Assembly (NCBI GenBank): GCA_041484665.1
Contig: JBGPIA010000003.1
Location: forward strand, 10,229 to 74,228
Length of the DNA: 64,000 bases
Direction: 5' to 3'
DNA from: Candidatus Krumholzibacteriia bacterium
Lineage (GTDB): Bacteria; Krumholzibacteriota; Krumholzibacteriia; JAJRXK01
Shown: piece after piece, positions 1,587-17,539 of the stretch
How the letters are laid out: each line of letters opens with the position of its first letter
Numbering within the stretch: position 1 is the stretch's first letter
Program-made: the position numbers and the translations under genes
Notes under the pieces: model-generated
Told to the model about the DNA's origin: nothing
The model's input: only the letters and a program-made list of their open reading frames with translations
The model's database searches: none

Positions 1587-2438
1587 TCAGGTACCCAGGT
1601 AGCGGTTGGCGTACTTGACCCAACCGATCTGCACGTGTCCGACGACCTTCGTCTTCTGCCGCATCTTCACCGGCAGGGGGTCGGTCAAGGTCATCGCCCC
1701 GATCAGAGGAAGGTTCTCCGCCTGGAGCAGATGCAGCACCCAGTCGAGCTCGGGCGTGACGTTGGCGACCTTGAAGGCGCTCTCGGAGGCCGCGGCCGAT
1801 GTGAGGAACCAGGCCAGCCGCGGCTCGCCCGGGGGCGCCGTTTGCGCTGCCGCCACCGTCGAGTCGGGCGGTTCGACGTCCGGCCGCTGCACCGCGCGCG
1901 CCACGGTCTGGAATTGGCTGTCCACGCGATCCAGGAGAGTCTTTGAGTCGGTGTCCCAGGTGAGCTTCTTGAGGTCGAACCCCGGGATCTCCAGGTTCAG
2001 CTCTTTCTCATTGAGCACCTTGGGGAGCACGGGATCCGGGACCGAGTCCAGCGGCGTGACCGTGGTGCCGTCACGGATCTGCTTGGCGATCAAGTAGACG
2101 AACGGCGAGAACGCCTTCTGGACTCCCAGCTTCTTGCCCGCCAACGTCGGCGCCCGGTTCTCCGCGTCGGGCAGCACGAGGACCTCCAGCAGATTCTTGT
2201 CGCGGATGAGCGCCGTGTTGCCATGGGCGTACACGAACTCCGGGGCATCGATCTCGAACAGGAAGCCCTTGCTCAGGACCGTCCCCCGCGTCACCGCGCG
2301 CAACGTCGCGTGCAGGTAGGGGTCCTTGACCTCTTTCGTCTTCTTGTTGCTTGCGCAGCCCGCCGCGACGAGAGCGACCAGCAGCAGCAGCGCCAGGCTG
2401 CCGACGATGCGCAGACCGTGGCGACGCTTGCAGGGCAT
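1587..2438 (-). CDS. Hypothetical lipoprotein
   Basis: GGAGG SD before ATG 2438; basic N-terminus, hydrophobic stretch, VAAG-C lipobox; Lys-rich composition unlike the shadow ORFs. Confidence 0.75.
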   Translation of the reverse strand: MPCKRRHGLRIVGSLALLLLVALVAAGCASNKKTKEVKDPYLHATLRAVTRGTVLSKGFLFEIDAPEFVYAHGNTALIRDKNLLEVLVLPDAENRAPTLAGKKLGVQKAFSPFVYLIAKQIRDGTTVTPLDSVPDPVLPKVLNEKELNLEIPGFDLKKLTWDTDSKTLLDRVDSQFQTVARAVQRPDVEPPDSTVAAAQTAPPGEPRLAWFLTSAAASESAFKVANVTPELDWVLHLLQAENLPLIGAMTLTDPLPVKMRQKTKVVGHVQIGWVKYANRYLGT

Positions 2439-2532
2439 AAGCACCTCCGTTGGTGATCGACGCCCGTCGGTGGGGTTGGGCGGTCGCGGGTCCGCCGGCG
2501 CTCCCGGAGCGCGGGGCACGTTGCGCGGCGAC

Positions 2533-2562
2533 AGAATAAGGACCTGCGCGCGGCGCTGTCAA
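2533..2562 (-). promoter_or_regulatory. Sigma70-type promoter for the lipoprotein gene
   Basis: TTGACA (2562-2557), 18 bp, TATTCT (2538-2533). Confidence 0.55.
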
Positions 2563-3056
2563 CTCCCACCGGGCGCGCCCGGTGGCAGAGCCGCGGCCGT
2601 CCGGCCGACCATCCGGCGGGCCACCAACGGATCTGCCTGGACCCACTGACCCGGGGGCCAGGCCGCCGTGCGCCCGGACTCCTCGCAACGCAACGATGGC
2701 ACCAGCCACGCCGGGGAGATCTCCAGGCCCGAGACGATCAGCGTGAAGCGCGCCGGCCCTGGGTGATCGGCGGGCAGCAGCGCCTCCAGCGGCAGCTCGA
2801 GGATCGAGGCAGGCTGCACTACGCACTCCTGCTGCCCCAGGCGGCTGCCCTTGGCATCCAGCGCGGTGAGCAGAACGCGGCGTGGCAGCATGTCGCTGGA
2901 CAAGAGAGATAGGATCAGTTCCTGGGCGTCGGGGCCGGGCGCCACGACCTCGGCGAGGCCCGGGGACGCCCAGATCCATACCGACCCGGCCGGGCCCGGG
3001 GCGGGCCGCCCTGCCTGCAACAATCCGGCCATCAGCAGGATCACGCCATGCGTCAT
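2559..3056 (-). CDS. Hypothetical protein, possible signal peptide
   Basis: ATGA overlap with the upstream gene's stop; starts MTHGVILLMAGLLQA; no family recognised. Confidence 0.55.
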   Translation of the reverse strand: MTHGVILLMAGLLQAGRPAPGPAGSVWIWASPGLAEVVAPGPDAQELILSLLSSDMLPRRVLLTALDAKGSRLGQQECVVQPASILELPLEALLPADHPGPARFTLIVSGLEISPAWLVPSLRCEESGRTAAWPPGQWVQADPLVARRMVGRTAAALPPGAPGGS

Positions 3057-3970
3057 CGCCGCTCCCCTTCTGCGCGCGGCGCCCAGGTCGCGACGCCCAG
3101 GCTCCATTGCACGCCGCGCAGCGTGTTCTCCCCACCCAACGGCAGCGACGCGCCGCCCACGAGCCACAGCGTGCCGCACACGCGCAGCGCGGCCTCCGGC
3201 GCCAGGCGCCAGCTACGCTCCGACGCGGACACGGCTCCGGCCGCCGCACCGGAGCAGCCGCCCCCGGCGGGAAGCACGGCGCGCAGCTCGACCTTCCAAA
3301 ACGCAGCGCCGCCGCTCGCGCCCGCCTCCAGCGCCCCCAGCCAGCTGTCGGCGAAGCCCGCGCCGCGCCCACGATACCCGAGCGTGGCGTTGGCATACAG
3401 TGGAAGCGGCCACAGCGACCGCCCCGCCAGGAGGAGCAGCTCCCCCTCGACGTGCCCGCTTCCCGCGGGCAGGTACTGCGTGCGCTGCGCCGGCGGTTTG
3501 CCGAGGTCGGACGCTGGGTAGGTGGGAACCCACAGGCTCGCCTGGGCTGCCCAGGGGCTGCGCCCCTCGTGGAGCGCCAGCCGCGCGCCGAGCTGCAAGT
3601 CCGCGGTCGAGCGCGTGCCGAAGCCCGGCGCGCCGTCGATCCGTTGGTCCTTGAACGCCCACGAGCCGACCAGCGCGAGGCGCGAGCGCACTCCGTACTC
3701 GCCGTACAGGAAGAGCTCCCGGTCCACGTAGTCGCCGCCGGAGGGATCGGCCGGAACGCGCCGACCGTCGCAGTCCACGCGCTCGCTCGCGCGCTGGGTC
3801 AGCAAGCTCAGCTTGAGGATGCCCCCGCCGGGCGGAGGCACCCAAGCGCCCGCCCGGGCGTCGCGGTCGTGCGGTGCCGCGCTCAGCGCCAGCAGCGAGG
3901 CTGCCGCCGCGATCCGCGGCGCACGCAACAGCCGCGCGATGCGCGGCGCGCGGAAGGAAAGCGATCGCAT
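3053..3970 (-). CDS. Putative outer-membrane beta-barrel / transporter-like protein
   Basis: Signal peptide ending ARA-GAW; alternating beta-strand pattern (LFLYGEYG, YANATLGYR, LVGGASLPL, WSLGVATW). Confidence 0.6.
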   Translation of the reverse strand: MRSLSFRAPRIARLLRAPRIAAAASLLALSAAPHDRDARAGAWVPPPGGGILKLSLLTQRASERVDCDGRRVPADPSGGDYVDRELFLYGEYGVRSRLALVGSWAFKDQRIDGAPGFGTRSTADLQLGARLALHEGRSPWAAQASLWVPTYPASDLGKPPAQRTQYLPAGSGHVEGELLLLAGRSLWPLPLYANATLGYRGRGAGFADSWLGALEAGASGGAAFWKVELRAVLPAGGGCSGAAAGAVSASERSWRLAPEAALRVCGTLWLVGGASLPLGGENTLRGVQWSLGVATWAPRAEGERR

Positions 3971-4032
3971 GGTGCCACGGTAGAGGGAACGCGCGGACCG
4001 GGCAAGGCTGCGGCCGACGCGCGCCGATCCGC

Positions 4033-4743
4033 TCAGCCGACCGCGCCGGTGTCGTCGTCGTGGCCCGGCGCCATCCCCGGCGCGCCGGCCCGGGGCAGCG
4101 GCCGCTCGCGCGGCAGGCGTTCGAGCGCAGCCTGCAGCCCGGCGTGCTCGGGATACTGGCCCTCCCACAGCTGGTGGAACGTGTTCCAGTGGCGCGGGAG
4201 CAGCAGCCCGCCGGTGGCGAACGTGCGGAAGAAGTGGCGCCGCCGCTCCGCCAGGCTCAGCCCGGGCTTGCGCCGAGCTTTCAGGCGGCCATCCGTCCAT
4301 ACGTCCCAGCAGGCCGCGAATCCGATGACACGATCGCGCGGCACGCGCGCGGGCAAGACCCGGTGGCGCAACAGGTCGTCCAGTTGCAGGAGGTTGCGGT
4401 GGATCCAGCGGTCGAGCAGGATGCGATCGACGTCGTGCGCCGGGATCTCCCCCAGCTGGTCGGTGGCCAGCGCCGCGCCCCGGCACCGCATCTCGGTCGA
4501 CGGCGTGAGCACGTCCAGTGGCGCGCCGTACAGCGACGCGTGCAGGCGGCCCGCAGCGTCGTGCTCGAAATGCCAGAACCCGCTGCCCTCGAACTCGGGC
4601 GCGTCGAAGGCGACGGTCACCCAAGGCAGCGAGCCATGCAATGGAAGGCTGCGAGCCACCGCGTGCACGAGCTCCGAGATCTCGGCTGCGCGGGGAAACT
4701 CTGGCGGAAACACGTCCACGAGCAGCTCGGCCGCCACGGTCAC
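4033..4743 (-). CDS. Hypothetical protein (start uncertain; GTG 4743 or ATG 4851)
   Basis: Aromatic-rich globular-looking sequence incl. RWIHRNLLQLDDLL and WDVWTDGRL. Confidence 0.65.
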   Translation of the reverse strand: MTVAAELLVDVFPPEFPRAAEISELVHAVARSLPLHGSLPWVTVAFDAPEFEGSGFWHFEHDAAGRLHASLYGAPLDVLTPSTEMRCRGAALATDQLGEIPAHDVDRILLDRWIHRNLLQLDDLLRHRVLPARVPRDRVIGFAACWDVWTDGRLKARRKPGLSLAERRRHFFRTFATGGLLLPRHWNTFHQLWEGQYPEHAGLQAALERLPRERPLPRAGAPGMAPGHDDDTGAVG

Positions 4744-4981
4744 CCACCTTCCCCCATGCGTGCGCGCCGCGGGCCACTGGCCGCGGGCGGCGGTCGGCCG
4801 CCCGCGGGCGCCACCTCCCCCATACTCGCGCAGCCGGCCAAAGGTTTCCATGGGATCCGTGCGGGCCGCAGCGGCGCGTCAGCGTGCTCGCCCGCGCAGC
4901 AGGCGCTGCCCACGCAGCGCGCGCCACGTGCGTCCGATCGCCCGCCGGCTTGGGCTGTGCGGCGCACGCTGATGGGAATTG

Positions 4982-5012
4982 GGAAGGCCCGGTCCACAGG
5001 ACCGGGCCTTCC
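4982..5012 (-). terminator. Perfect 14-bp hairpin downstream of the secreted-protein gene
   Basis: ggaaggcccggtcc-aca-ggaccgggccttcc; about 60 nt after the stop at 5075; weak U tract. Confidence 0.65.
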
Positions 5013-5074
5013 GGCGCGCGCCGGACCGCGGGACGACGCCCTGCGGTCCGACATCCCAGAAAGTGCGGGCGCCG

Positions 5075-5638
5075 CTACTCGCGGTAGAGCGCCTTGACCG
5101 CGCCGAAGCTAGCGGACTCCACCGGCACCGCGGTGGTCAGTGTCGCCGTCTGCGGAGTGAGGTCGACCAGCTGCGGATCGGGGGTTGGACAGGTGGAGAA
5201 ACGCGGAAGGGTCACGCCGGGCTGCGGCACCGGCCACTTGGACACGGTGATCGCGGCGTTGTTGACCGCCGAGAAGGCGAGCACCTGGAGCGTGGACACG
5301 ACCATCACGTCGGTGGAGTTCCACAGCAGCATGCAGTCGGCGAAGCCCATCTGCACGCCGCTCGCGCTGCCCTGCCCGTTCACGAAATTGCCGGCGAACG
5401 TCTCGCCGATCACGATCAGCTCGCTGGGCAGATTGACCTTGTACTCGACGGCCGTCATCTGGTTCTGCACGTCCGTCATGCAGACGTAGAGGTTGAACGG
5501 CGTCGAGGTTCCCTTGGTGGCCGTACTGGTCGTTGCCGCGCTGTCGAAGTAGACGCCGATGTTTCCGGCCTGGGCAGCCGGGGCGCCCAGCAACAGGGCG
5601 AGCGCAGCCAGGGCCGCGATCGTTCTCAAGGACTTCAT
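5075..5638 (-). CDS. Secreted beta-sandwich (cohesin-like?) protein with a C-terminal 'VESASFGAVKALYRE' tail
   Basis: AAGGAG SD; Sec signal MKSLRTIAALAALALLLGAPAAQA; beta-rich mature region with cysteines. Confidence 0.85.
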   Translation of the reverse strand: MKSLRTIAALAALALLLGAPAAQAGNIGVYFDSAATTSTATKGTSTPFNLYVCMTDVQNQMTAVEYKVNLPSELIVIGETFAGNFVNGQGSASGVQMGFADCMLLWNSTDVMVVSTLQVLAFSAVNNAAITVSKWPVPQPGVTLPRFSTCPTPDPQLVDLTPQTATLTTAVPVESASFGAVKALYRE

Positions 5639-5886
5639 GGCTGGATCCGCTCCTTGCGCTTCCGCTTGGGTCCGCGTCACGGGTGGTGCGGGGAGAAGGC
5701 GCCCGGCGTTTGCAAACTGCACGCGCGCGGAGCCGCCTCCCTTGGGTTCTGCGTCGCCACGACGGGGACCCGCGCCCCAGCCGTGACCAGCGTGGGCCGA
5801 GCGCATAACACATGCCGGGCGCGCTGCGGGCGGAAAGGCGGCAATTCCTTCCGGGTCGGTCCGCGCGCAGCTGCGCGGCGAAGCAG

Positions 5887-8800
5887 CTAGAGCAAGCCGG
5901 CGAAGGGGTCGACCTCGGAGTAGATGACGGTGAGCTGGTCGGCCGCACGCGACAGCACGCGGTAGTGCCGGTCGAGCGCCTCATGGCCGGTGCACAGGTG
6001 GATCACGTGGTCCAGCTCAGCGCCGGACAGCTCGCCGGGCTTCAGCAGCCACAGGTGGGCTCCCGGCCCCAGCGGATCGAGCAACGCGCGCGGATCCACC
6101 GCGCGCGCGCACGCACGCCACGAGCGCATCCGGTGCTCCGCGAGGTAGAGATCGAGGCGGCTCTGCGCGGCTCCACTGGCCTGCACGCCCGCCAGCAGGC
6201 GCGCGCGGCGCAGTAGGTCGGCGCCCTCCTGCAGCGACGTCCGCTCGCGCAGACGCGGACCCGCCTCGGCCAGCGCTAACAGCAGCGCGCCCGCACGAGA
6301 CGCGATGGCCACGGGCTCCCCCCGCTCGTGCGCGGCCAACCACTGCCCCAGGGTCTGGGGGTCCGGCGCGGCGAGCGGCTCGCCGGCCGACTGCAGCAGC
6401 AGCGACGCCAGGGCCCCGCGCGTCGCGTCGTCCAGACCGCGCTCCACGTCGTGCACCAGCAGGGCCGCGAGCAGCTCCCGAGGTCCGCTCGCCGCGCAGC
6501 GCGTCACCTCGCCCGCGAGCCAGACGGCCAAGCCCCGCTCGCGCAGTCCCGCGGCGAGCGCGGACAGATCCTCGTCGCTGCCCGCCACGATGCCGGTGCG
6601 CTGGCGCTGCGCGGCGGAATCGGCGAGCAGCTCGCCGATGATGTCGGCGCAAGCCTGGAGGCTGATCCCGCGGCGGCGCGTGAGTCGCCCTTTCTCCTTG
6701 CGGCGCGTTTGCAGCGCATTGCTGGCGTTGAGCTCGCGCACGAGCAGCGCGGAGCCCGCGCGCGCCAACTCGCGCGCGAGGCGGAAGCTCTGGCTCTGCC
6801 CACGTTCGTGGCGGCCGGTGTGCTGCGGGGGCAAGAGAGCCGGATCTGCGGCCGTCCAGCGCTGCGGCTGCGTGAAGAGCAGGTCGATGACGGCCAGCTC
6901 CTGCTCGTCGAAGGCGTCCGCATCGTCCACCAAGACCACGGGGTAGCGGTCGCGCCAGGCTGCGGCAACATCGGTCCGCTCCTCGATCCCTCGGCGCGCC
7001 AGCGCGCACAGTTCGCTGCGGGGGATGCGACCGGCCGCTTCCCGCGCCGCAGCGGCGCAGCGGCGCAGCAGCGGGAGGTCCACAGCGGCCGCGTCCTCGC
7101 CCGCCGCGGCGGCGAGCAGGACCTCGCCCCCCTCGACCACGCGGCGCAGCTCCACCAGATCGAGCGCCGGTGCGCGCCCGGCCGCCTGCGCGTAGCGCCG
7201 GCACGCGTCGGCGACCAGGCGCTTGCGGATCGACTCCCCTTCCGCGGTGGCCTGCGGGGGGAGCAACCGCGGCGACGCCCCAGCGTCGCGCGCGCCTGCG
7301 CGGTGGCGCAACAATGCCAGCGCGAGCTCCTCCCCCGTGGCGACCTCGGGCCGCGGCGCGGTCGCGCCCTGACGGCGCAGCAGCTCCTCGCAGCGCAGCA
7401 GGGAAACGCCGCCAGGGACCAGCAGCAGTGCTTCGCCGCCGCCGCCTGCCCCGCGCGCCGCGGAGAGCAGGCGCGTCGTCTTGCCCGATCCCGGAGCTCC
7501 CAGGATCCAGCCGGGCGGCGGCGTATCATCGTGGCGGTGTGTGGCGAACGCCCCCTGCTGCGGCGCCGCCGCCACGGGAGCGGCGCGGGGCACGGGCCAG
7601 GGCGGCAAGGGCAGGGGGATCTCCACCGCCGCGCCGCGCACCGCGGCGAGCCACTCCTCGCTCGCGCGCGCCGCGGGGCCGACGTCTGCATCGCCGGCGG
7701 CAGTGGGCGACGCGGCCGATTCCGGCGGCGCGTCCCCCGCGGCGAGCCCCTCGCGGCGCAGCCAGGCGAAGAGGGCGCGGCTCGCGCCCGCGGCCCACGG
7801 ATCCTCCTCGAGCTCATCGGGATCGAGGGAGATGGCAGCGGCGGCATCGAAGCGCATCCCCACGGCCTCGGCGCGCGTCACCACTGCCGCAGCGCGGCGC
7901 CGCGCCGTGGCGAGAGCCTCGGTGCGCGCAGCGCCCTCCAGGTCCTCCAGGCGGGCGCGCCGTCCGGTGCGCGGGGACGAGGCCCAAGCCTCCACCGCTG
8001 CCGCCAGCTGCGCCAGCGGCGGCGTGCGCGCCAAAGCGGCCTGCGGACCCAGGCCGCCCCCCACATCCGCAGGCGGTCCGGCCGACAGTGCGCGCTCCAG
8101 CGCGGCGAGCCCCTCGCGCACCCGGAAGTCGACCTCCAGGCGCGTAGCCGCCCAGCGCCAGGCTTCCGGCGTAGACGCGCTGCCGACCTCGTGCGGCGCA
8201 GCGCCCGCGGGCGCGCGCCGCGCCCACAGGAGCGGGTGGTCCAGCACCGTGAGCGCCCCGCCGGGCCGGCCGCTCGCCGCGAGCCGTTCGAGCGCCGCGC
8301 GCAGATACAGCGGATCCTCCGGCAGCGACGCCAGCACCAGCTCACCCTCTGGGATCGGCCCGGTCCAGAGGTCTGCCAGCGCCAGGATGCGCACCGAGAA
8401 GAGCGGCGTTTGGTGTGCATCTCCCGCCAGGAGCGGCGTGCCGACGAGCGCCGCCGCGTCCACGCCCAACAGCGATTGCAGCACCTCGCGCTGCGATCGC
8501 CCGGGCGCCAGCACCAGCCAGGAACCGCGGGTGGAGCGCTGGCCCAGCCAACGCGCCATCTGGCGCAGAAGCGTCGCGCGCTGCAGGTCCTCGTCGCGCG
8601 CGTCGCCCAGCAACGCCGTCCCGCACCGCACACACGCTGCGTAAGCGTTCGCCACCTGCGCCGGCACCGCGCACGCCGGGCAGCGCCAGGGCGGGTCCTG
8701 GAGCGCCACCCGCACGACGCGCCAGGCCTGCGTCACCGCGACCGCTGGCGCCACGCTGCGCACCTCGCCGTCCACGCTCGCCGCCAGCGCGTCGAGCGCG

Positions 8801-11800
8801 CGCGACTCCCCCTGCGCGTCGAGCAAGCACAACACCAGCGGACCGCGTTCGGCGGGCAGGCCACGCAGGAACGCCAGGGCGCTGCGCTGCGCCTCGTCGA
8901 ACGCCGGATGCCCGGGCAGCGCCCGATCGGCGTCGGGGACGACCCACGCGACCTGCGTGGCGCGCGCGGCCCAGGCGCGCACCAGCGGCAGAGCGAGCGC
9001 GCGGGCCGGCAGCGCGAGCACTGAAACAGCGCCGGTCTCCGCGTCCAGCAGCGCCCGCTCCAGCGCGCCAGCCGGATCGGGTAGGGCCAGCGCGCCGGCC
9101 GGCAGCTCGCACACTGCCAGGTCAGCCTCCTTCCGCAAGGCGGGCGGTTGATCGTGGACCCATAGCACGCAGCGCACCCCCAACGGTCCACCGTCGCCGG
9201 CCTCTTTGGCCAGCCGCGCCAGCAGGCCGCACAGCAGCACGCGCTCGGCATCGCTGGCACCGCCCAGCGCGACGCGCATCCCGCGCGTCAGGTCGTGCAG
9301 GGCGCGCGCGAGCGCGTGGAGGCGCTGTGGGTCGGGCGGGTCGGCCTGGGCCAGCAAACGCCACGTGGCCGTCAGACGCTGCGCGTCCACCGGACACCGC
9401 CAGCGCGGGAGCTTGCGTGCGCCCATGCCATCCAGCAGCCGCGAGCCGGTGGCGGCCCCCAGCGGATCCGTCGCTGGAGACTGCGCAGGCGCCAAGCGCG
9501 GCGCGCCGCCGACCAGGCGCGCCAGGCGCGGATCGACGCAGGCGACCATGCGCTGCGCGTGTGTGGCCGCCAGCGCCAACCGCAGCACCGCGACGCCGTC
9601 GGGGAGCGCTCCGGGTGCGCCCAGCAGGGGCACGACCACGACCTCCGCCGACGGCGTGGGAGCGGCTCCCGCAAGCGGCGCCGCCCGTGCGAGCTCGCCC
9701 AGCAACGCCTCGCCGTCGGCCAGCGGCGCAAGCCACAGGCGGGCCTGCTTCGTGCGGGACAACCAGGCGGCCGCGCGCAGGCGCGCCAGCACGAGCGCCT
9801 CCTCCGACACCAGCAGCGCGCCCGGCTCGAATCCCGGCGGGCAGAGCACGACGGCGGGCGCCGACGCGCCCCGCAGCGTCACCGTCCGCAGCGCGCGGCG
9901 CGAAGCGAGCACGATCGAGAGCTGCACGGCCAGCAGATCTCCGGCGGCGGCCGCGTCCGCGCACACCACGGCCGACGGCGCGGCGGCAATCCACCGCACC
10001 AGGTCCTCCCACGCGCTCCGCGCGCCGGCGTCGTCCTGCACCGCGATCCAGCGCGGCAGATCGTCCACCACGAGCGCGCGCCCGGTCGGCGCGAGCGTGG
10101 CGTGCGGGCCCACCTGGATCCAGATGCTGCCCGCCGCGGCCCGCTCGTGGAGCTGCGCGTCGAAGCATCCGCCCGCTTCGCGCAGCCGACAGGCGGGTGT
10201 GCAGCCCTTGTACGCCGCCGCCAGGGCCGACGCCACCTGATCGTCCTGCGTCCGGTCGCCGGAGCCCGGCAGCCAGCGCGCGAGATCGCCTTCCGGACAG
10301 GTGGCGAGCGCGTGGTAGAGACGCAGCACATCCACCGCCCGCGCCGGGGTCGCCAAGGCCTCCTGGATCCAGAGGTCCAGTAGCGCGAGCAGCGGCTCGG
10401 CGCAGCTCGGCGAGGTGGGCGCCAGCGTGACGTCGCGCGGTGCGGTCGCGCCAGCCGCCGCGGCGGCCACGGCCATGCCGCGCTCGGCGTTGCCGGCGAT
10501 CACTACGCAGGGGGCAGTGCGCACGGCGAGCGCGGCCAGCTGCTCGGGCGAGACCGCTCCGAGCAGGAGCGCGTCGCGGTCGGCGGTGGCAGGCACTGGC
10601 GCCAGCGCGCCGCGCTGCGGCCAGCGGCGCAGCGCCAGGTGCGGCCACGCGAGCGGGACGACCAGCTCCACACGCTGGAGCTCGTGCGCAGCGTGCGGCG
10701 GATCCGGCTGCTGTGCGCGGCCCAGGACGCGCAGCGCCGCAGCCAGGCCCGCCGCCGCGGCCAGCCCGGCGCGTCCCAGCGTCTCCAGGTTGGCGATCCC
10801 CCACGCGGACCCCAGCGGCTCGGCCTGCGCGAGTCCGCCCAGGCGCGGGCCCAGCGTCCGCGCGCTCTCGATCAGCGGCGCCCACGGCGCGACGAGCGCG
10901 TCGGCCGCCGTGAACGCGGGATGCGGCGCGACGGCCGGGGCGGGCGCCACCACCGACGGCGTGGCCAGCGCCGCCTCCAGCGCCCCCAGGGCCACCACCG
11001 CTCGGTCCCCCAGCAGCGATCGCAGGTCTTCGGGCGGCTCGGTGACGCACAGCACGACCGCGTCCGGGTCGAGCCAGCTGTCGATCTCACTGCGCGCGGC
11101 CACCGGCCCGAGCGCGAGCCCGGCAGCTCCGGCGCCGGGATCCGCGGCGACACCCGCGGCGGTGCGCTGCAGCAGCAAAGCGTCGCACGGAGCGGTGCGC
11201 TCCAGGCGGAGCAGCGCCAGGCGCCCCCCGTGGCCTTGGTCCCCGCCATTCCACGCGAGCGCGGCGAGCCCACCCTGGAGCGCGGGGGGACGCCGACGGC
11301 GCAGCAGCGCCTGGAGTTCCGCAGGCGGCCACGCGGCGCCGAGCCGGTGGGCCAGCGGGGCCAGCTGGCGCAGACGCTGCTCGCTCGCCGCCGGTACGGC
11401 CAGCCGGTCCTCGTTGCAGGACAGCCCCGCGACCCATCGCAGCATCGCCAGCGCCGCGTCCGATCCAGGCGCCTCCTGCAGCGCGAGAAGGCCCAGCGCC
11501 AGGGCGGCGGGAGCGCCATCGGCGCGCAGCAGGCTGAGCCGTGCCGCCAGGCCCAACGCCTGCCAGCGCTGCGGGTGACCCGCGGGCAGCCCCGGCTCCG
11601 TGAGCCGCGCGATGCACCACGGCGCCAGCGCCGTCAGGTCGGGCGCTGCCTCGTCCAGCCGGGAGCGAGCCCAGCTCGCCAGCCAGACCAGGTCCTCGGT
11701 CTGCTCCGGCCGCAGGTCGTGGAGCAGATCGGGATCGGCGGCCGTCAGATGGCGCCCGCAGGCGTGCAGGTACGCGCGAGCCATCGGCCAGGCCAGCGCG

Positions 11801-12183
11801 GCGGGCAGTCGGAAGCTGCTCCCGTGGCGGTGCAGCAACAGCAGCTGCGCGAGCCGCGCCAACTCATCGAGGCCCAGCGCGTCCCAGCGACCCCGGACGC
11901 GGGTCGTCGCCTCCTGCAGGCGCAGGTCGGTGGCCTGCTCGAGATCGGAGGCGAGCTGCGCTGCGCGGTAGCTGAACGCTGGCCCCGCCGGCTCCTCGCT
12001 GGGGCCGGTGACCAACCGGCGCGCCCAGCGCACCACGGGCTCCACGGCCTTCTCGGCGATCGCGGCGCGCAGGTGCGAGCGGTCGTGCTCGTGGTGCGCC
12101 CGCGCGAGGAGGCGCTCGGTGGCCAGCAGCTCACCGGCGGCGAGCCGGCGCCGCGCTTCCTCCAACAGCGACCAGTAGCTCAT
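5887..12183 (-). CDS. 2098-aa fusion: helical N-terminus + DEDDh-like pseudo-exonuclease + DinG-like + RecQ-like + UvrD-like helicase domains, mostly catalytically degenerate
   Basis: Uninterrupted ORF 33 nt after leuS; GAPGSGKT at aa1562; VLVDD at about aa1750; YRVLSRA near the C-terminus; DinG-like CTPAC..C..ERAAAGSIWIQVGPHATL..LVVDD; RecQ-like VVPDADRALPGHPAF. Domain calls by eye. Confidence 0.75.
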   Translation of the reverse strand: MSYWSLLEEARRRLAAGELLATERLLARAHHEHDRSHLRAAIAEKAVEPVVRWARRLVTGPSEEPAGPAFSYRAAQLASDLEQATDLRLQEATTRVRGRWDALGLDELARLAQLLLLHRHGSSFRLPAALAWPMARAYLHACGRHLTAADPDLLHDLRPEQTEDLVWLASWARSRLDEAAPDLTALAPWCIARLTEPGLPAGHPQRWQALGLAARLSLLRADGAPAALALGLLALQEAPGSDAALAMLRWVAGLSCNEDRLAVPAASEQRLRQLAPLAHRLGAAWPPAELQALLRRRRPPALQGGLAALAWNGGDQGHGGRLALLRLERTAPCDALLLQRTAAGVAADPGAGAAGLALGPVAARSEIDSWLDPDAVVLCVTEPPEDLRSLLGDRAVVALGALEAALATPSVVAPAPAVAPHPAFTAADALVAPWAPLIESARTLGPRLGGLAQAEPLGSAWGIANLETLGRAGLAAAAGLAAALRVLGRAQQPDPPHAAHELQRVELVVPLAWPHLALRRWPQRGALAPVPATADRDALLLGAVSPEQLAALAVRTAPCVVIAGNAERGMAVAAAAAGATAPRDVTLAPTSPSCAEPLLALLDLWIQEALATPARAVDVLRLYHALATCPEGDLARWLPGSGDRTQDDQVASALAAAYKGCTPACRLREAGGCFDAQLHERAAAGSIWIQVGPHATLAPTGRALVVDDLPRWIAVQDDAGARSAWEDLVRWIAAAPSAVVCADAAAAGDLLAVQLSIVLASRRALRTVTLRGASAPAVVLCPPGFEPGALLVSEEALVLARLRAAAWLSRTKQARLWLAPLADGEALLGELARAAPLAGAAPTPSAEVVVVPLLGAPGALPDGVAVLRLALAATHAQRMVACVDPRLARLVGGAPRLAPAQSPATDPLGAATGSRLLDGMGARKLPRWRCPVDAQRLTATWRLLAQADPPDPQRLHALARALHDLTRGMRVALGGASDAERVLLCGLLARLAKEAGDGGPLGVRCVLWVHDQPPALRKEADLAVCELPAGALALPDPAGALERALLDAETGAVSVLALPARALALPLVRAWAARATQVAWVVPDADRALPGHPAFDEAQRSALAFLRGLPAERGPLVLCLLDAQGESRALDALAASVDGEVRSVAPAVAVTQAWRVVRVALQDPPWRCPACAVPAQVANAYAACVRCGTALLGDARDEDLQRATLLRQMARWLGQRSTRGSWLVLAPGRSQREVLQSLLGVDAAALVGTPLLAGDAHQTPLFSVRILALADLWTGPIPEGELVLASLPEDPLYLRAALERLAASGRPGGALTVLDHPLLWARRAPAGAAPHEVGSASTPEAWRWAATRLEVDFRVREGLAALERALSAGPPADVGGGLGPQAALARTPPLAQLAAAVEAWASSPRTGRRARLEDLEGAARTEALATARRRAAAVVTRAEAVGMRFDAAAAISLDPDELEEDPWAAGASRALFAWLRREGLAAGDAPPESAASPTAAGDADVGPAARASEEWLAAVRGAAVEIPLPLPPWPVPRAAPVAAAPQQGAFATHRHDDTPPPGWILGAPGSGKTTRLLSAARGAGGGGEALLLVPGGVSLLRCEELLRRQGATAPRPEVATGEELALALLRHRAGARDAGASPRLLPPQATAEGESIRKRLVADACRRYAQAAGRAPALDLVELRRVVEGGEVLLAAAAGEDAAAVDLPLLRRCAAAAREAAGRIPRSELCALARRGIEERTDVAAAWRDRYPVVLVDDADAFDEQELAVIDLLFTQPQRWTAADPALLPPQHTGRHERGQSQSFRLARELARAGSALLVRELNASNALQTRRKEKGRLTRRRGISLQACADIIGELLADSAAQRQRTGIVAGSDEDLSALAAGLRERGLAVWLAGEVTRCAASGPRELLAALLVHDVERGLDDATRGALASLLLQSAGEPLAAPDPQTLGQWLAAHERGEPVAIASRAGALLLALAEAGPRLRERTSLQEGADLLRRARLLAGVQASGAAQSRLDLYLAEHRMRSWRACARAVDPRALLDPLGPGAHLWLLKPGELSGAELDHVIHLCTGHEALDRHYRVLSRAADQLTVIYSEVDPFAGLL

Positions 12184-12216
12184 CGCACGCCCCGACGACG
12201 AGCGCTCCCGCGAGCG

Positions 12217-14712
12217 CTACGCGACGACGATGTTGACCAACTTGTCGGGAACGACAACGACTTTGACCACCGCTTTGCCCGCGATCCAGGTGGGCACCTT
12301 GCCGTACGCGCGGGCGAGGGCGGCGAGCTGTTCGCGGTCGGTGCCACGCGCGACGTGCATCTGCTCGCGCACCTTGCCGTTGACCTGCACCACAACGGTC
12401 ACCTCGTCGCGCTGCAGCACCGCCTCGTCCCACGCGGGCCACGCTTCGTCGAACACACTGCCCGCGTGCCCCAGCATCTCCCACAGCTCCTCGCCCAGGT
12501 GTGGTGCGAAGGGCGCCAACACGCGCACCCAGTCCTGCACGATCTCCAGCGCCGCAGGACCCCATTGCTGCGGCGAGCGCTCCGCGGCACAAGCGTGAAG
12601 CTGGTTGGTGAGCTCCATGTGGCGCGCGATCGCCGTGTTGAACTGGAAGCGGTCGAGATCGAGCGTGCCGCCCTTCACGGAGCGGTGCCGAACGAAGCGC
12701 AGCTGTGCAAAGGTGGCGTCGGCCGCAGCATCGCGCCGCGTGCGCGCGCCGCGCAAACGCTCCTGATGCTCTTCCACGAAGCGGTGCACGCGCGCCAGGT
12801 AGCGGGCGATCCCGTGGATGCCCGAGTCGTCCCAGTCGCCGCCGTCGATGAACGCGAAGCCGAACATCAGGTACATCCGCAGGGCGTCGCTGCCGTAGGT
12901 GTCCAGGTACGCCTCGGGGCTGACTACATTGCCGCGGCTCTTGCTCATGCGGGCGCCCTGGTGCGTGATCACGCCCTGGTGACGCAGGCAGGCGAAAGGC
13001 TCGTCGAAGGACACGTGCCCCAGCCGGTGGAGCACCTTGGCAACGAAGCGGGCGTACAGCAGGTGCATTACGGCATGATCGGCGCCGCCCACGTACTGCG
13101 TCACGGGCAGCCAGGCGTCAGCCAGCGCACGGTCCCACGGAACGTCAGGGCGGTGCGGGGACAGGTAGCGCAGGTAATACCAGCTGGAGTCCACGAAGGT
13201 GTCCATGGTGTCGGTCTCGCGTTGTGCAGGGCCGCCGCAGCGCGGGCAATCCACCTTCGACCAGTTCGGGTGGCGACGCAGCGGGCTCTCGCCTGTGGGC
13301 ATGAACTCCGCGTCATCGGGCAGCAGCACCGGGAGCTGCTCCATCGGCACGGCCACCTCGCCGCACCGCGCGCAGTGCACGATGGGGATCGGTGCTCCCC
13401 AGTAGCGCTGCCGGCTCACCAGCCAGTCGCGGAGGCGGTAATTGACGGTGGCCCCTCCGTGCCCCCATTGGCGCAGGTACTCGACGACGCGCTCGCGGGC
13501 CACCGGCCCATCCAGCCCGTCAAACTCGCCGCTGTTGCACGTGGGCCCGTCCTGCGTCCACGCGACCGGCAACGGCTCCGTTGGATCGTCGCCCGGGCCG
13601 AGGATCACCCGGCGGATCGGCAGCCCGAACCGCGTGGCGAACTCGAAGTCGCGCTGGTCGTGGCCGGGGACGGCCATCACGGCCCCCGTGCCGTAGGTGG
13701 AGAGCACATAGTCGGCGATCCAGATGGGAATGCGTTCGCCGTTGACCGGGTTGAGGGCGTACGCGCCGGTGAAGACGCCCGACTTCTCCCGCGTGGTCGA
13801 GGTGCGGTCGATCTCGCTGAGGCGCGACGCCTGTTCCACGTAGCCCTGCACCTGCACGCGCTGCGACGCGGCGCCGAGCTGGGGCACCAGCGGGTGCTCG
13901 GGCGCCAGCACCATGTAGGTGACGCCGAAGATCGTGTCGGGACGGGTCGTGAAGATGGGCAGCGTGCGGTCCACGTCGGCGTCGGATGCTAGCGAATCCT
14001 CCGTCACGCTGAAGTTCACCAGCGCTCCCTCGCTGCGGCCGATCCAGTTGCGCTGCATGGTGACGGTCTTCTGGGGCCAATCGATGCGTGAGAGGCCCTC
14101 CAGCAGATCGTCGGCGAAGGCGGTGATACGGAAGAACCACTGGACCAGCTCGCGGCGTCGCACCGGGGTCGAGCAGCGCTCGCACAGCCCGTCGTGCACC
14201 TGCTCGTTGGCCAGCACCGTCTGGCAACTGTCGCACCAGTTGACGGGCGCCTGCTTGCGGTAGGCGTAGCCCGCCTCGTAGAGGACCAGGAACAGCCACT
14301 GGGTCCACCTGTAGTAGTCGGGCTTGTGGGTCTGCAGCTCATGGGACCAGTCGTACATGCCACCCAGGGTCTGCAGTTGCTTGCGCATGTACTCGATGTT
14401 CTTCTCGGTGTGCACCCGCGGGTGGACCTTCATCTTGATCGCGTAGTTCTCCGCCGGCAGACCGAAGCTGTCGAACCCCATCGGCTGGAAGACGTGGTCG
14501 CCGCGCATGCGCCGGTAGCGGGCCCAAGTGTCCGTGGGGGCGTAGTTGAACCAGTGCCCCAGGTGCAGCTTGTCGCCGGAGGGGTAGCTGAACATCACCA
14601 GGCAGTAACAGCGCCCGCCCCCCTCGTCGCGCAGCCGGGCCCGGTGCGCCCCGGATTGCTCCCAGCGCGCCTGCCACTTGCGCTCGAGGGAATGTGGCTG
14701 ATAGCCCCCCAT
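12217..14712 (-). CDS. leuS: Leucine--tRNA ligase
   Basis: MFSYPSGDKLHLGH (HIGH), KMSKS-type RMSKSRGNV, editing domain FTTRPDT and GTGAVMAVPGHDQRD. Confidence 0.98.
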   Translation of the reverse strand: MGGYQPHSLERKWQARWEQSGAHRARLRDEGGGRCYCLVMFSYPSGDKLHLGHWFNYAPTDTWARYRRMRGDHVFQPMGFDSFGLPAENYAIKMKVHPRVHTEKNIEYMRKQLQTLGGMYDWSHELQTHKPDYYRWTQWLFLVLYEAGYAYRKQAPVNWCDSCQTVLANEQVHDGLCERCSTPVRRRELVQWFFRITAFADDLLEGLSRIDWPQKTVTMQRNWIGRSEGALVNFSVTEDSLASDADVDRTLPIFTTRPDTIFGVTYMVLAPEHPLVPQLGAASQRVQVQGYVEQASRLSEIDRTSTTREKSGVFTGAYALNPVNGERIPIWIADYVLSTYGTGAVMAVPGHDQRDFEFATRFGLPIRRVILGPGDDPTEPLPVAWTQDGPTCNSGEFDGLDGPVARERVVEYLRQWGHGGATVNYRLRDWLVSRQRYWGAPIPIVHCARCGEVAVPMEQLPVLLPDDAEFMPTGESPLRRHPNWSKVDCPRCGGPAQRETDTMDTFVDSSWYYLRYLSPHRPDVPWDRALADAWLPVTQYVGGADHAVMHLLYARFVAKVLHRLGHVSFDEPFACLRHQGVITHQGARMSKSRGNVVSPEAYLDTYGSDALRMYLMFGFAFIDGGDWDDSGIHGIARYLARVHRFVEEHQERLRGARTRRDAAADATFAQLRFVRHRSVKGGTLDLDRFQFNTAIARHMELTNQLHACAAERSPQQWGPAALEIVQDWVRVLAPFAPHLGEELWEMLGHAGSVFDEAWPAWDEAVLQRDEVTVVVQVNGKVREQMHVARGTDREQLAALARAYGKVPTWIAGKAVVKVVVVPDKLVNIVVA

Positions 14713-14917
14713 GGAGATCCTTTTGCGACGCTGCGTCCGGCGACAGGGCGGGCTGCTGGGCCCTCCCCATAAAGGGCGCCCGCCGCTCTGGGAGAGTGGC
14801 GCCCGCCGCTCAAGGAGTGGAGCCGGACGGCCGATACCCACCGTGTGCCGCGCGCGCGGACGCCGCCGTGCGCGATCGAGGGGGTTTCACCCCCGTCCGG
14901 ATTCCTTGCGGGCGCCC

Positions 14918-14963: not shown

Positions 14964-15896
14964 ATGCCCGACATCGATCTGAAGCACTACCTGGGGGGCG
15001 GCGGGCCCGGCCGGGGCGGCGCGGGAGGGCACCCCTCCGGGCGCACGGTGCGCCTGAGCGGCGCCGAGATCGCCCTGGCGGTCAAGCGGCTGCCGGCGCT
15101 GCCGGCCATCCTGCACGAGGTCATCCGTGACCTGAGCAACGTCAACGCCGATCTCGCCCGTCTGCAGGAGCGCATCAGCAGCGATCCCAGCTTGACCACG
15201 CGCCTGCTCAAGATGGCCAATAGCAGCTTCTACAACAGCAGCACCGAGATCTGCTCCATCGCGCGCGCGCTGACCACGCTGGGCTTCCGCACCGCCTGCA
15301 ACGTCGTGGTCGCCAGCGCTCTGCGTGCCGCCCTCTACCAGGGTGATGTGCCGGGCTTCTCCCGGCGGGGCCTGTTCCGGCACTCGCTGGGCAGCGCGGT
15401 GTGCTCCGCGCGCCTGGGGCGCATGGTGCCCACCCTGCGGTCGCATCAGGACCAGCTGTTCGTCGCCGGCCTGCTCCACGACGTGGGCATGGTGGCGCTG
15501 TCGACGGTCTACGCCCAGAATCACATCGAGACCGGGAGCGACTGCTGGTCGCGCGATCAGATCCTCGATGTCGAGCGCCAGCTGCTGGGCACTGACCACC
15601 TGGAGATCGGACTGCGGGTCTGGGAGCATTGGGGACTCCCGAGGGAACTGCTGGCGCCCATCACGCGGCACCACGAGCCGCTGGTACGCCTGCTGGACGA
15701 GCCGCTCACGCTGGCCGTCGCGGTGACGGAGCTGTACCTCGACCAGCTCGGCTTCGGGCGCCCCCGACCGGTAGCGACGCCCGAGGACGTGCAGGTGGCC
15801 ATCAAGCTCCTGGGCGCTGAGCCCGCCCTAGTCCTGCCCGCGCTGGAGGGGTTCGAGCAGGAAGTCGCAGCCATCCACGGAGCGCTGACGACATGA
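14964..15896 (+). CDS. HDOD domain signal transduction protein
   Basis: LPALP, ISSDPSLTTRLLKMANSSFY, HSLGSA, AGLLHDVG, HLEIG...WGLP..L...I..HHEP. Confidence 0.92.
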   Translation: MPDIDLKHYLGGGGPGRGGAGGHPSGRTVRLSGAEIALAVKRLPALPAILHEVIRDLSNVNADLARLQERISSDPSLTTRLLKMANSSFYNSSTEICSIARALTTLGFRTACNVVVASALRAALYQGDVPGFSRRGLFRHSLGSAVCSARLGRMVPTLRSHQDQLFVAGLLHDVGMVALSTVYAQNHIETGSDCWSRDQILDVERQLLGTDHLEIGLRVWEHWGLPRELLAPITRHHEPLVRLLDEPLTLAVAVTELYLDQLGFGRPRPVATPEDVQVAIKLLGAEPALVLPALEGFEQEVAAIHGALTT

Positions 15897-17539
15897 CCAC
15901 GCTCGCGCCGACGCCGCTCCTGGACGGGAGCCTGCTGGGGCTCCACCAGGCTTTGGTGCCCGCCGAGGCGTATGCGCTGCTGACCGAGATTCTCAAGGAC
16001 CGCTACGGGCACGCGCCGCGAGGCGCCTACGTGCGCGCGAGCAATGGCAGCTTCGCCCTGGACGCTCAGTGTCCCGCCGACGGCACGTTGCCCGACGGAT
16101 TCGAGCCGCAGACGCGGCCGCTGCCGGCACACCTGAAGGCTGTCGTCTACACCTACAATGGACTGCCGCTGGGTGCGCTGGCACTGGACCGCGCGGTCGC
16201 GGCGCCCGCAGGCGAGCTCGAGCAATTGCTCCAGGAGCATTTCGCGCCCGCCTTCTTCCGGACGTGCTATCTCGCGCAGACGTTGCGCGACAACGCCCTG
16301 GCCAACGAGCAGATCTATTTCCTCACCGAGATCGGCCGCCTGCTGGGGACTCTGGAGCTGCAGCCCCTGCTGCTGAACATCCTGGAGCTCACCAGCGGCT
16401 ACCTCGAGGCCGACGTCGGCTCGATCACCCTGCTATCACCCGTTGGCGAGCCTGCCACTGCCGTGGAATTCGGCCTGCCGCTCTCCGCCTTGCTCTCGTG
16501 GCAGGACGAGGCGGGCGACGCGGTGCTCCAGGCGGCGCTGCGGCGCGGCTCGCCGCTGCACCTGCGTCGCGAGCAGCTGCGCTTCAGCGATGCTGCCGCG
16601 CCGCGCCCCGACCAGCTGCTGATCCTGCCGCTGGTGAGCAGCAATAGCACCCTGGGCAGCATCAATCTCGTGGCCTCGACGGCGGCAGTCGGCTTCAGCA
16701 ACAAGCGCATGGAGGTCGTGCGGCCCGCGGTGGGCCTGGCAGCGGTGGCCGTGGAGAACGCCCTGCTGCTGCAGGTCAAGCTCGAGCGCGAGCGCGAGCA
16801 GCAGCAGCTGCTCGTCGCCCAGCAGATCCAGAGCCGGCTGCTGCCGCAGGTGCCGCCCCGCATCGCAGGAATCGATCTGGCGGGCACGTCGCTGCCGGCG
16901 ACCACCATCGGTGGCGATTACTACGATTTCTTCGCGCTGCGCGACGGCGCGCTGGGCATGGTGGTAGCCGATGTCGCGGGCAAGGGGGTCCCTGCGGGAC
17001 TCATCATGACCGCCACACGCGCCATGTTCCGCAGCGCGGCGCACCAGCACTCCCGGCCGGAGCGGGTGCTGGAACGGGTGAACCGCCTGTTGTGCGAGGA
17101 GGGATTCGGCCCCAACTTCGTCACGGCGGTCTGCGTCCGCGTGGAGCTCCCCTCGGGGAAGGTCACAATCGCATCCGCCGGACACGAGCCGGCCCTGCTG
17201 CTGCGGGCGCGCGACGGGCGCCTGGAGTCGACGTTGTTGCGCTCGCTCCCGATGGGCCTGCGCGACTCGACCCGCTATCCCGCTGCCCGGCTGCAGCTGC
17301 AGCCCGGCGATGCGTTGCTGCTCTACAGTGACGGAATCACCGAGGCGATGGACGCCGGCCGCGAGCAGTTCGGCCACCAGCGGCTGGAGGAGACCTTCGC
17401 CAAGGCCCCGCGCGATTCGGCGCGCGCCATCCTCGATCACGTCCTGGCCGCGATCGGGGCACACGTCCAGCAGGCCCGCCGTCACGACGACACGACGCTG
17501 ATCGTTGCGCGCATCGACCCCACGGCAGGCGGTCCCTGA
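15893..17539 (+). CDS. GAF domain + PP2C (SpoIIE/RsbU-type) Ser/Thr phosphatase
   Basis: AQQIQSRLLP, IGGDYYDF, VADVAGKGVPAGL, SAGHEP, LYSDGITEA, DDTT; ATGA overlap with the HDOD gene. Confidence 0.93.
   Translation: MTTLAPTPLLDGSLLGLHQALVPAEAYALLTEILKDRYGHAPRGAYVRASNGSFALDAQCPADGTLPDGFEPQTRPLPAHLKAVVYTYNGLPLGALALDRAVAAPAGELEQLLQEHFAPAFFRTCYLAQTLRDNALANEQIYFLTEIGRLLGTLELQPLLLNILELTSGYLEADVGSITLLSPVGEPATAVEFGLPLSALLSWQDEAGDAVLQAALRRGSPLHLRREQLRFSDAAAPRPDQLLILPLVSSNSTLGSINLVASTAAVGFSNKRMEVVRPAVGLAAVAVENALLLQVKLEREREQQQLLVAQQIQSRLLPQVPPRIAGIDLAGTSLPATTIGGDYYDFFALRDGALGMVVADVAGKGVPAGLIMTATRAMFRSAAHQHSRPERVLERVNRLLCEEGFGPNFVTAVCVRVELPSGKVTIASAGHEPALLLRARDGRLESTLLRSLPMGLRDSTRYPAARLQLQPGDALLLYSDGITEAMDAGREQFGHQRLEETFAKAPRDSARAILDHVLAAIGAHVQQARRHDDTTLIVARIDPTAGGP

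Follow-up and report, generated by a model that had tools for sequence, protein, structure and literature searches.

Background

Superfamily 1 (SF1) helicases require the lysine of Walker A, the glutamate of motif II and the glutamine of motif III for ATP hydrolysis, and mutants in which the Walker A lysine is replaced by arginine typically bind nucleotide without hydrolysing it. In RecC and AddB, of the RecBCD and AddAB complexes, the SF1 fold has remained under selection while its ATPase motifs decayed, and it serves DNA binding and scaffolding within a large repair machine. A different arrangement is that of XPD and DinG, in which a four-cysteine cluster shortly precedes a Walker-B-like motif. 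These systems are the closest described points of comparison for the subject of this analysis, a single minus-strand gene of 2098 codons (the giant gene) within a stretch of 64,000 nucleotides, hereafter the window, from a Candidatus Krumholzibacteriia bacterium (assembly GCA_041484665.1, contig JBGPIA010000003.1, positions 10,229 to 74,228). A sequence-only reading had taken the product for an ordered fusion of four nucleic-acid enzyme families, a DEDDh exonuclease, DinG, RecQ and UvrD, with most catalytic residues lost. Of that order, the UvrD part (aa ~1551-2098) stands above chance and the exonuclease, DinG and RecQ parts do not, and the verdict reached here is that the giant protein is an undescribed, lineage-restricted orphan carrying a degenerate SF1 module.

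A UvrD/Rep-like module at the C-terminus

The C-terminal 550 residues of the giant protein are collinear with the entire core of UvrD. A 10-sequence family profile of aa 1551-2098 was aligned by hhalign with Escherichia coli UvrD at a probability of 86% and E 5.5e-6 over 498 collinear columns (UvrD residues 23-622), the same profile giving E values of at least 0.12 against the controls RecQ, DinG and DnaQ, while the whole-protein family profile matched UvrD at E 1e-4 across the stretch between Walker A and motif II. Motifs I, Ia, II, V and VI fell in register with those of UvrD, with GAPGSGKT of the giant protein placed on GAGSGKT, VATGEELALALLR on VGTFHGLAHRLLR, RYPVVLVDD on RFTNILVDE, SGAELDHVIHL on KGLEFPQVFIV, and HYRVLSRAADQLTVIYSE on AYVGVTRAMQKLTLTYAE. 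The spacing of approximately 185 aa between Walker A and motif II fits the 1B insert of UvrD rather than STAND or AAA+ proteins. Further likenesses to UvrD, Rep and PcrA (SF1A; PF00580, PF13361) are the GxGKT Walker A of the window copy, the threonine of motif Ia, an acidic motif II preceded by a hydrophobic strand and spaced as in UvrD, and a Y-x-V-x-x-R that resembles motif VI. Other matches below threshold also fell among SF1 proteins, namely UvrD-helicase, ADDB_N, AAA_30 and Viral_helicase1 in Pfam, GajB in PADLOC, and Rep and UvrD1 in the PDB, where Rep (1uaa), at E 0.09, was the best that hidden Markov model searches with the whole protein, the C-terminal profile and the 20-sequence profile yielded.

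On the strength of these profile alignments an SF1 UvrD/Rep-like fold is accepted for aa 1551-2098, as the sequence-only reading had proposed. Strict membership of the UvrD family fails nonetheless, since the module lies below the Pfam cut-off (the match stays short of the gathering score, and only two of 20 members match at all), carries DD in place of DE and has no GDxxQ. The giant protein also departs from UvrD, Rep and PcrA in that neither the GDxxQ of motif III nor motif V can be recognised, the Walker A lysine is not conserved across the family, and approximately 1,550 residues without counterpart in UvrD-family proteins precede the module.

Erosion of the SF1 active site

Family-wide motif counts were taken from a 20-sequence alignment, in which 16 sequences cover Walker A and 17 cover the zinc ribbon described below. 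Walker A has the form GxxGxGK[ST] in six of the 16, the window copy included, ends in GR[ST] in eight, and is beyond recognition in the remaining two (P0008 and P0009); one of the eight arginine-type sequences, P0007, reads ALARTGRT and is missing the first glycine as well. Among closely related Krumholzibacteriota metagenome-assembled genomes (MAGs), L011 and L013 carry GVPGSGRS as against GVPGSGKS in L014, which is a natural lysine/arginine polymorphism at a normally invariant catalytic residue. Walker A lies at residues ~1516-1523 of each of these three proteins (L011:5480-11626, L013:5465-11611 and L014:5465-11611). Motif II is DD across the family, with ED once, DG twice and DE never, and the motif III glutamine is missing throughout, the giant protein having AADPALLP in its place. 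The window copy retains arginines at the motif IV-like and VI-like positions. The best-conserved stretches of the module are the 1B-like insert (aa 1651-1750) and the final 50 residues rather than the P-loop.

The earlier proposal of catalytic residues lost within an intact frame holds for the SF1 motifs, which have eroded under purifying selection; the Walker A of the window copy is still GAPGSGKT. Its further suggestion of a pseudo-enzyme rather than a motor gains from the same observation, as such erosion fits a pseudo-helicase.

A genuine gene under purifying selection

The minus-strand frame is open throughout, from an ATG at 12183 to a TAG at 5889-5887. With a G+C content (GC) of 77% in the giant gene, compared with approximately 72% in the window and 69-72% in flanking genes, chance open reading frames (ORFs) are frequent, and the frame was therefore tested directly. 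GC at the first, second and third codon positions is 0.83, 0.58 and 0.89 and is even across all 200-codon blocks, the signature of real coding sequence where genomic GC is high. The protein is rich in alanine (21%), leucine (15.5%) and arginine (10%), a composition that accounts for its eye-catching appearance and with which short motif matches by eye come easily. The start MSYWS(L/Q)LEE is common to the closer homologues and MSY is found in the divergent clade, and tryptophan, cysteine, glycine, proline and aspartate columns are near-invariant across the entire length of the protein. The ratio of nonsynonymous to synonymous substitution rates (dN/dS) was 0.23 for the 72%-identical pair L004/L005, with per-segment values of 0.17-0.33, and 0.08 for the pair L006/L007, while the SF1 module gave 0.08-0.22; these figures come from the closest pairs because synonymous sites are saturated in more distant ones.

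Two long antisense or out-of-frame ORFs overlap the giant gene, at 6328-9024 (plus strand, 898 aa) and 10639-13992 (plus strand, 1117 aa). These shadowing frames are high-GC artefacts and would mislead gene callers that rely on ORF length. Their presence, and the ease with which long frames arise by chance at 77% GC, are what could be said for the giant ORF itself being spurious or a pseudogene in decay, a reading already refuted by the codon-position pattern, the dN/dS values of 0.08-0.23, the near-invariant positions and at least nine intact full-length homologues with identities down to 28%. The giant ORF is a genuine gene under purifying selection, and the sequence-only reading was correct that the 2098-aa frame is real; the check for decay that it had named found homologues free of frameshifts and dN/dS well below 1.

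Relatives and lineage distribution

The full-length homologues span 28-51% identity. The closest, P0001 (2075 aa, 51% identity), aligns end to end, and scans covering a single genome for each GTDB species, together with Joint Genome Institute (JGI) metagenomes, recovered further intact, full-length copies (2046-2053 aa, 37-38% identity); a genome scan with the divergent-clade alignment added one MAG. An identical protein is present on JGI and Logan sediment-metagenome contigs, and the sequence occurs in many sediment metagenome DNA runs. All hosts with taxonomic names belong to Candidatus Krumholzibacteriota or Krumholzibacteriia.

An exhaustive HMMER scan, in which 1.84 billion protein representatives were searched with a profile of aa 300-1340, returned 14 proteins, every one at E < 1e-30, with none between 1e-30 and 1e-3. 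In each of the 14 the match begins near residue 300 of a protein of approximately 1900-2050 aa, or of a fragment. The shared architecture and the gap in E values indicate a small, sharply bounded family of fixed architecture. The family is absent from Pfam and NCBIfam, which bears out the earlier impression of an undescribed protein. By these searches no relative outside the family is detectable for the first 1,550 residues, and detectable kinship with UvrD and Rep is confined to the last quarter. Restriction to Candidatus Krumholzibacteriota and close uncultured sediment relatives, with vertical inheritance, forms part of the tentative explanation given below.

The N-terminal domain and the orphan middle

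The first 300 residues are entirely helical in an AlphaFold2 (AF2) model, of which only aa ~190-290 are confident (predicted local distance difference test, pLDDT, 73-83), and probably form a helical repeat; of five conservation peaks in the family, two lie here, at aa 1-50 and 251-300. The approximately 1,200 residues that follow are specific to the family and include two putative metal sites. In aa 300-480 the conserved residues are tryptophan, leucine, proline, cysteine and histidine, with no DEDD acidic set. In aa 540-900 and 1000-1130, helices alternate with strands in low-confidence AF2 models. The first of these regions contains a four-cysteine cluster, C-x66-C-x3-C-x7-C, followed 34 residues on by the end of a hydrophobic strand in DD; C673, Q677 and R681 are invariant, and C594, C661, C665, D707 and D708 at least 90% conserved, across the 20-sequence alignment. 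From this conservation the cluster is a putative Fe-S or Zn site, and D707-D708 might have a Walker-B-like function. Further along are a nearly invariant DGGPL motif (aa 997-1001) and a CxxC-x12-CxxC zinc ribbon at aa 1168-1188, with weak Zn-ribbon matches in Pfam and the PDB. The tetrapeptide HPAF occurs twice, at aa 421-424 (10912-10923) and aa 1092-1095 (8899-8910), each time after a Pro/Ala-rich stretch; H421-P422 is at least 90% conserved, H1092-P1093-A1094 is conserved in the closer clade only, and hhalign found no repeat relationship between the two regions.

Profile searches recovered the expected fold for none of the three modules that had been claimed for the middle, the UvrD module alone being excepted. 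No Pfam match was found for aa 305-1320 at E<=10 in the window protein or in one lower-GC homologue, whole-protein Pfam scans of 20 members at E<=1 gave only the zinc-ribbon matches in the middle segments, and NCBIfam, PADLOC and PDB sequence searches were empty for aa 305-1320. The HMMER scan of aa 300-1340 returned family members only, with no link to known enzymes. A composition artefact is excluded as the cause, since EF-G, Ffh, PGK, TldD, subtilase, HDOD and SpoIIE proteins of the same window give strong Pfam matches. No GxGK[ST] or DExH occurs at a consistent position in the middle segments among the 20 members, so that no intact relative bridges these segments to a known enzyme. Alignment of the segments by hhalign with E. 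coli DnaQ, DinG and RecQ gave P values of 0.1-0.9, save for segment S4 against RecQ.

The DEDDh/DnaQ-like exonuclease, which had been placed at aa ~305-470, is unsupported: the motif 'LAALAW' contains no acidic residue, and hhalign to DnaQ gave P 0.6-0.7, with nothing aligning. DinG/XPD, placed at aa ~540-900, is likewise unsupported, with no Walker A, DExH/DEAH, or DEAD_2 or Helicase_C_2 match and hhalign P values of 0.23-0.8. The match proposed by eye (aa 655-715) does recur as the best hhalign path, at the chance level of P = 0.34; in it C661 and C665 fall on C194 and C199 of DinG and LVVDD falls on LVLDEGHH. Both proteins have one distant and three clustered cysteines (C120-x73-C194-x4-C199-x5-C205 in E. 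coli DinG) followed by a hydrophobic strand with an acidic pair, hhhhD[DE], which lies 42 aa on in E. coli DinG. The giant middle differs from DinG and XPD in having no Walker A, DEAH or Pfam match, so that the likeness is one of pattern and may serve as a lead only.

For RecQ, placed at aa ~955-1320, no Pfam DEAD, Helicase_C or RQC match was found at E<=10, nor any GxGK[ST] or DExH at aa 925-1335 in the 20 members, and this candidate is unsupported as well. Here too the match to motif II proposed by eye recurs, the best hhalign path setting aa 1042-1100 (VVPDADRALPGHPAF) on RecQ motif Ib-II (VDEAHCISQWGHDF), at a P value that stays at chance level (0.012 for S4 with the 10-sequence profile, 0.14 with the 20-sequence profile). 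It did not improve against an 80-sequence RecQ profile (0.03-0.12), which came from a genome scan and holds only Enterobacterales sequences of 77-100% identity. A Zn-binding four-cysteine element nearby is a further likeness to RecQ; unlike RecQ, the segment has neither motif I nor motif VI, and the divergent half of the family lacks the HPA motif. An origin of the middle segments by duplication, whether of the SF1 module or of one another, is also unsupported, the best all-against-all hhalign comparison being S1 against S6 (E 0.015) and the best within the middle S3 against S4 (E 0.063).

Proposed role and alternative explanations

The explanation that best accommodates these observations, held tentatively, is that of a cytoplasmic Krumholzibacteriota protein of approximately 2,100 residues in which a helical N-terminus, an orphan middle with metal sites and a variable linker precede a non-motor UvrD/Rep-type SF1 module. 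Given that the change from DE to DD, the loss of the motif III glutamine, the switching between lysine and arginine and even the loss of the P-loop have been tolerated, and that selection bears most heavily on the 1B-like insert and the C-terminal end, the module has probably not been maintained for processive unwinding. It would instead provide nucleotide-dependent binding to single-stranded nucleic acid, most likely as a nucleotide-gated clamp or docking module in the manner of the inactivated helicase domains of RecC and AddB, and would recruit to DNA or RNA both the metal-binding orphan domains and the helical domain, which would serve for interaction. With its GxGKT, DD and both arginines, the window copy may retain a slow or weak ATPase. 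The giant family shares with RecC and AddB an SF1 fold under selection with decaying ATPase motifs, and one member has a weak ADDB_N match (E 0.02); it differs in having no RecB-type nuclease domain, in being a single chain and in having no adjacent AddA or RecB partner gene.

Several points weigh against this explanation. Six of the 16 aligned members, the window's among them, and also L014 retain the canonical Walker A lysine, and an active motor could persist in those that do. Support for the fold itself softens with depth, the 20-sequence profile aligning with UvrD at E 0.0033 in unchanged register, and Pfam PF00580 gave E values of 0.001-0.02, at 14.9 bits for the whole protein and 19.1 for the isolated domain against a cut-off of 23. 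Nucleic-acid binding is suggested by family membership only, and the comparison with RecC and AddB is one of analogy. Both AF2 models were built from a two-sequence alignment, with mean pLDDT of 36 and 41, and are unusable as structural evidence. None of the RNA runs searched contained the giant sequence, and no evidence of its expression was obtained.

An active UvrD-type repair or recombination helicase with lineage-specific accessory domains, possibly a single-chain analogue of the helicase-nucleases, is rather unlikely. It would make the arginine-type and P-loop-less relatives secondary losses, and the GAPGSGKT, acidic motif II pair and motif IV- and VI-like arginines of the window copy speak for it, together with purifying selection on the SF1 module and the housekeeping neighbourhood. 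However, the replacement of DE by DD and the loss of the motif III glutamine extend to the whole family, window copy included, Walker A flips between lysine and arginine among near-identical MAGs, and no nuclease motif was detected anywhere in the giant protein. Highly improbable is a protein unconnected with nucleic acids, in which a STAND-like or other regulatory P-loop switch is coupled to a helical-repeat sensor and the UvrD similarity is that of any P-loop. Weak Pfam matches of single members at the P-loop or N-terminus (nSTAND_NTPase5, AAA_16, NACHT and TPR_12), the helical N-terminal domain and the hhhhDD Walker B typical of STAND NTPases would agree with such a switch, but all STAND matches are far under their thresholds, the 185-aa spacing between Walker A and Walker B is that of UvrD and not of STAND, and hhalign follows UvrD collinearly through the entire 600-residue core, up to and including the motif V/VI region, which is far from the P-loop.

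The ordered fusion of DEDDh exonuclease, DinG, RecQ and UvrD, with all catalytic residues lost and a role as DNA-structure sensor or scaffold, is very unlikely. Its UvrD module is real, the alternation of strands and helices in the low-confidence models is RecA/Rossmann-like, the non-significant best path to RecQ repeats the proposed motif II match, and both the pairing of cysteines and LVVDD with DinG and the position of the cluster before a Walker-B-like motif recall XPD and DinG. Against these stand middle segments without a Pfam match in any of the 20 members, hhalign P values of 0.012-0.8, an exhaustive scan that returned the family alone, an 'exonuclease' motif without acidic residues, the absence of Walker A or DExH from the middle of every member, and hhalign comparisons in which the segments show no repeat relationship with the SF1 module. 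Another reading, also unlikely though somewhat less so, would have the 1,200-residue orphan middle consist of two RecA-like helicase-derived modules whose ATP sites were lost before the family radiated, the first with an XPD/DinG-type Fe-S domain and the second an SF2-like core (that is, of helicase superfamily 2) with an inserted zinc ribbon. Were it true, three (pseudo)helicases, the eroding UvrD-like module being the third, would stand in tandem in one chain, and this chain would serve anaerobic sediment bacteria as a nucleic-acid scaffold that senses redox state or metal.

Genomic neighbourhood

The giant gene lies 33 nt beyond the end of leuS on the same strand (Table 1), and leuS is immediately upstream in all homologous loci whose upstream flank is present. 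Downstream are five genes without a Pfam family, whose N-termini suggest a signal peptide in the first, an apparently cytoplasmic product for the second, an outer-membrane-like one for the third, a small protein for the fourth and a lipobox lipoprotein for the fifth. The 187-, 272- and 283-aa products are encoded in every related locus with a downstream flank, the 305-aa gene in some, and the 165-aa gene in L001 only. These five and the giant gene form an orphan-gene block between leuS and ychF, which is followed by pfk, rarA/mgsA, cdd and deoC. The order leuS, giant gene, orphan block, ychF is retained in all related loci, including the divergent-clade locus L017, whose giant protein is only approximately 30% identical. 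Conservation of this order across the lineage indicates a housekeeping neighbourhood and vertical inheritance rather than the defence island that had been suggested as a possible setting, or a mobile element. An anti-phage defence function such as that of Gabija GajB is rejected on the same neighbours and on the PADLOC match, which reached only E 0.028 and 11 bits.

Promoter and terminator scans around the giant gene found nothing. GC-rich hairpins lie in the spacer between leuS and the giant gene (12184-12216) and just past the giant stop codon (5845-5886); they are no stabler than dinucleotide shuffles (z -0.85 and -0.42, respectively) and neither has a T-tract. Elsewhere in the window, a second large gene (18988-22554, minus strand, 1188 aa) has a product in which a subtilase (Peptidase_S8) is joined to FG-GAP repeats. 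Divergent from leuS, at 14964-17539 on the plus strand, are an HDOD/HD-domain gene and then a gene with GAF and SpoIIE (PP2C-type phosphatase) domains, the start of which overlaps the stop of the former.

Table 1. Coordinates of the giant gene, its segments and motifs, and adjacent genes in the window
Feature	Position	Strand	Basis or remarks
Giant gene	5887..12183	minus	2098 aa + stop codon; ORF list, translation, coding GC3 pattern, homologues, dN/dS
UvrD/Rep-like SF1 helicase-type module, aa 1551-2098	5890..7533	minus	Spans domains 1A, 1B, 2A, 2B; hhalign
Walker A GAPGSGKT, aa 1562-1569	7477..7500	minus	Intact in window copy, read from sequence
Motif II VLVDD, aa 1750-1754	6922..6936	minus	Aligned to UvrD ILVDEFQD
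Motif VI-like YRVLSR, aa 2074-2079	5947..5964	minus	Aligned to UvrD YVGVTRA; follows invariant LCTGHE; conserved in family
All-alpha N-terminal domain, aa 1-300	11284..12183	minus	AF2, conservation profile; no Pfam match
Orphan segment, aa 301-536 (claimed 'exonuclease')	10576..11283	minus	No Pfam, PDB or hhalign match
Orphan alpha/beta segment, aa 537-905 (claimed 'DinG')	9469..10575	minus	No Pfam, PDB or hhalign support
Four-cysteine cluster C594...C661-x3-C665-x7-C673, with Q677, R681	10165..10404	minus	20-sequence alignment
D707-D708 closing hydrophobic strand LVVDD, Walker-B-like	10060..10065	minus	Conserved in at least 90% of 20 sequences
Orphan alpha/beta segment, aa 925-1335 (claimed 'RecQ')	8179..9411	minus	Includes conserved DGGPL
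Zinc ribbon CxxC-x12-CxxC, aa 1168-1188	8620..8682	minus	Four Cys in 16 of 17 covering sequences
Least conserved helical or linker segment, aa 1336-1550	7534..8178	minus	Highest column entropy, highest segment dN/dS
leuS (leucyl-tRNA synthetase)	12217..14841	minus	Pfam tRNA-synt_1 and Anticodon_1 (on identical JGI contig)
Five downstream genes without Pfam family	5075-5638, 4033-4851, 3053-3970, 2559-3056, 1587-2438 (span 1587-5638)	minus	

Implications

The striking four-enzyme architecture is mostly not borne out, and a new mechanism is not demonstrated. Three quarters of the giant protein are without a detectable relative among the 1.84 billion representatives, and the conserved four-cysteine cluster offers a biochemical handle on this part, as Fe-S and Zn are distinguishable. 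If the preferred explanation holds, the giant gene encodes a phylum-level core protein of an uncultured lineage, kept beside leuS at a coding cost of 6.3 kb, and its C-terminal module would be a helicase in the course of losing its motor, with the Walker A lysine and arginine flipping between near-identical genomes. The family would then provide a natural series in which to ask why an SF1 fold persists once ATP hydrolysis has become dispensable.

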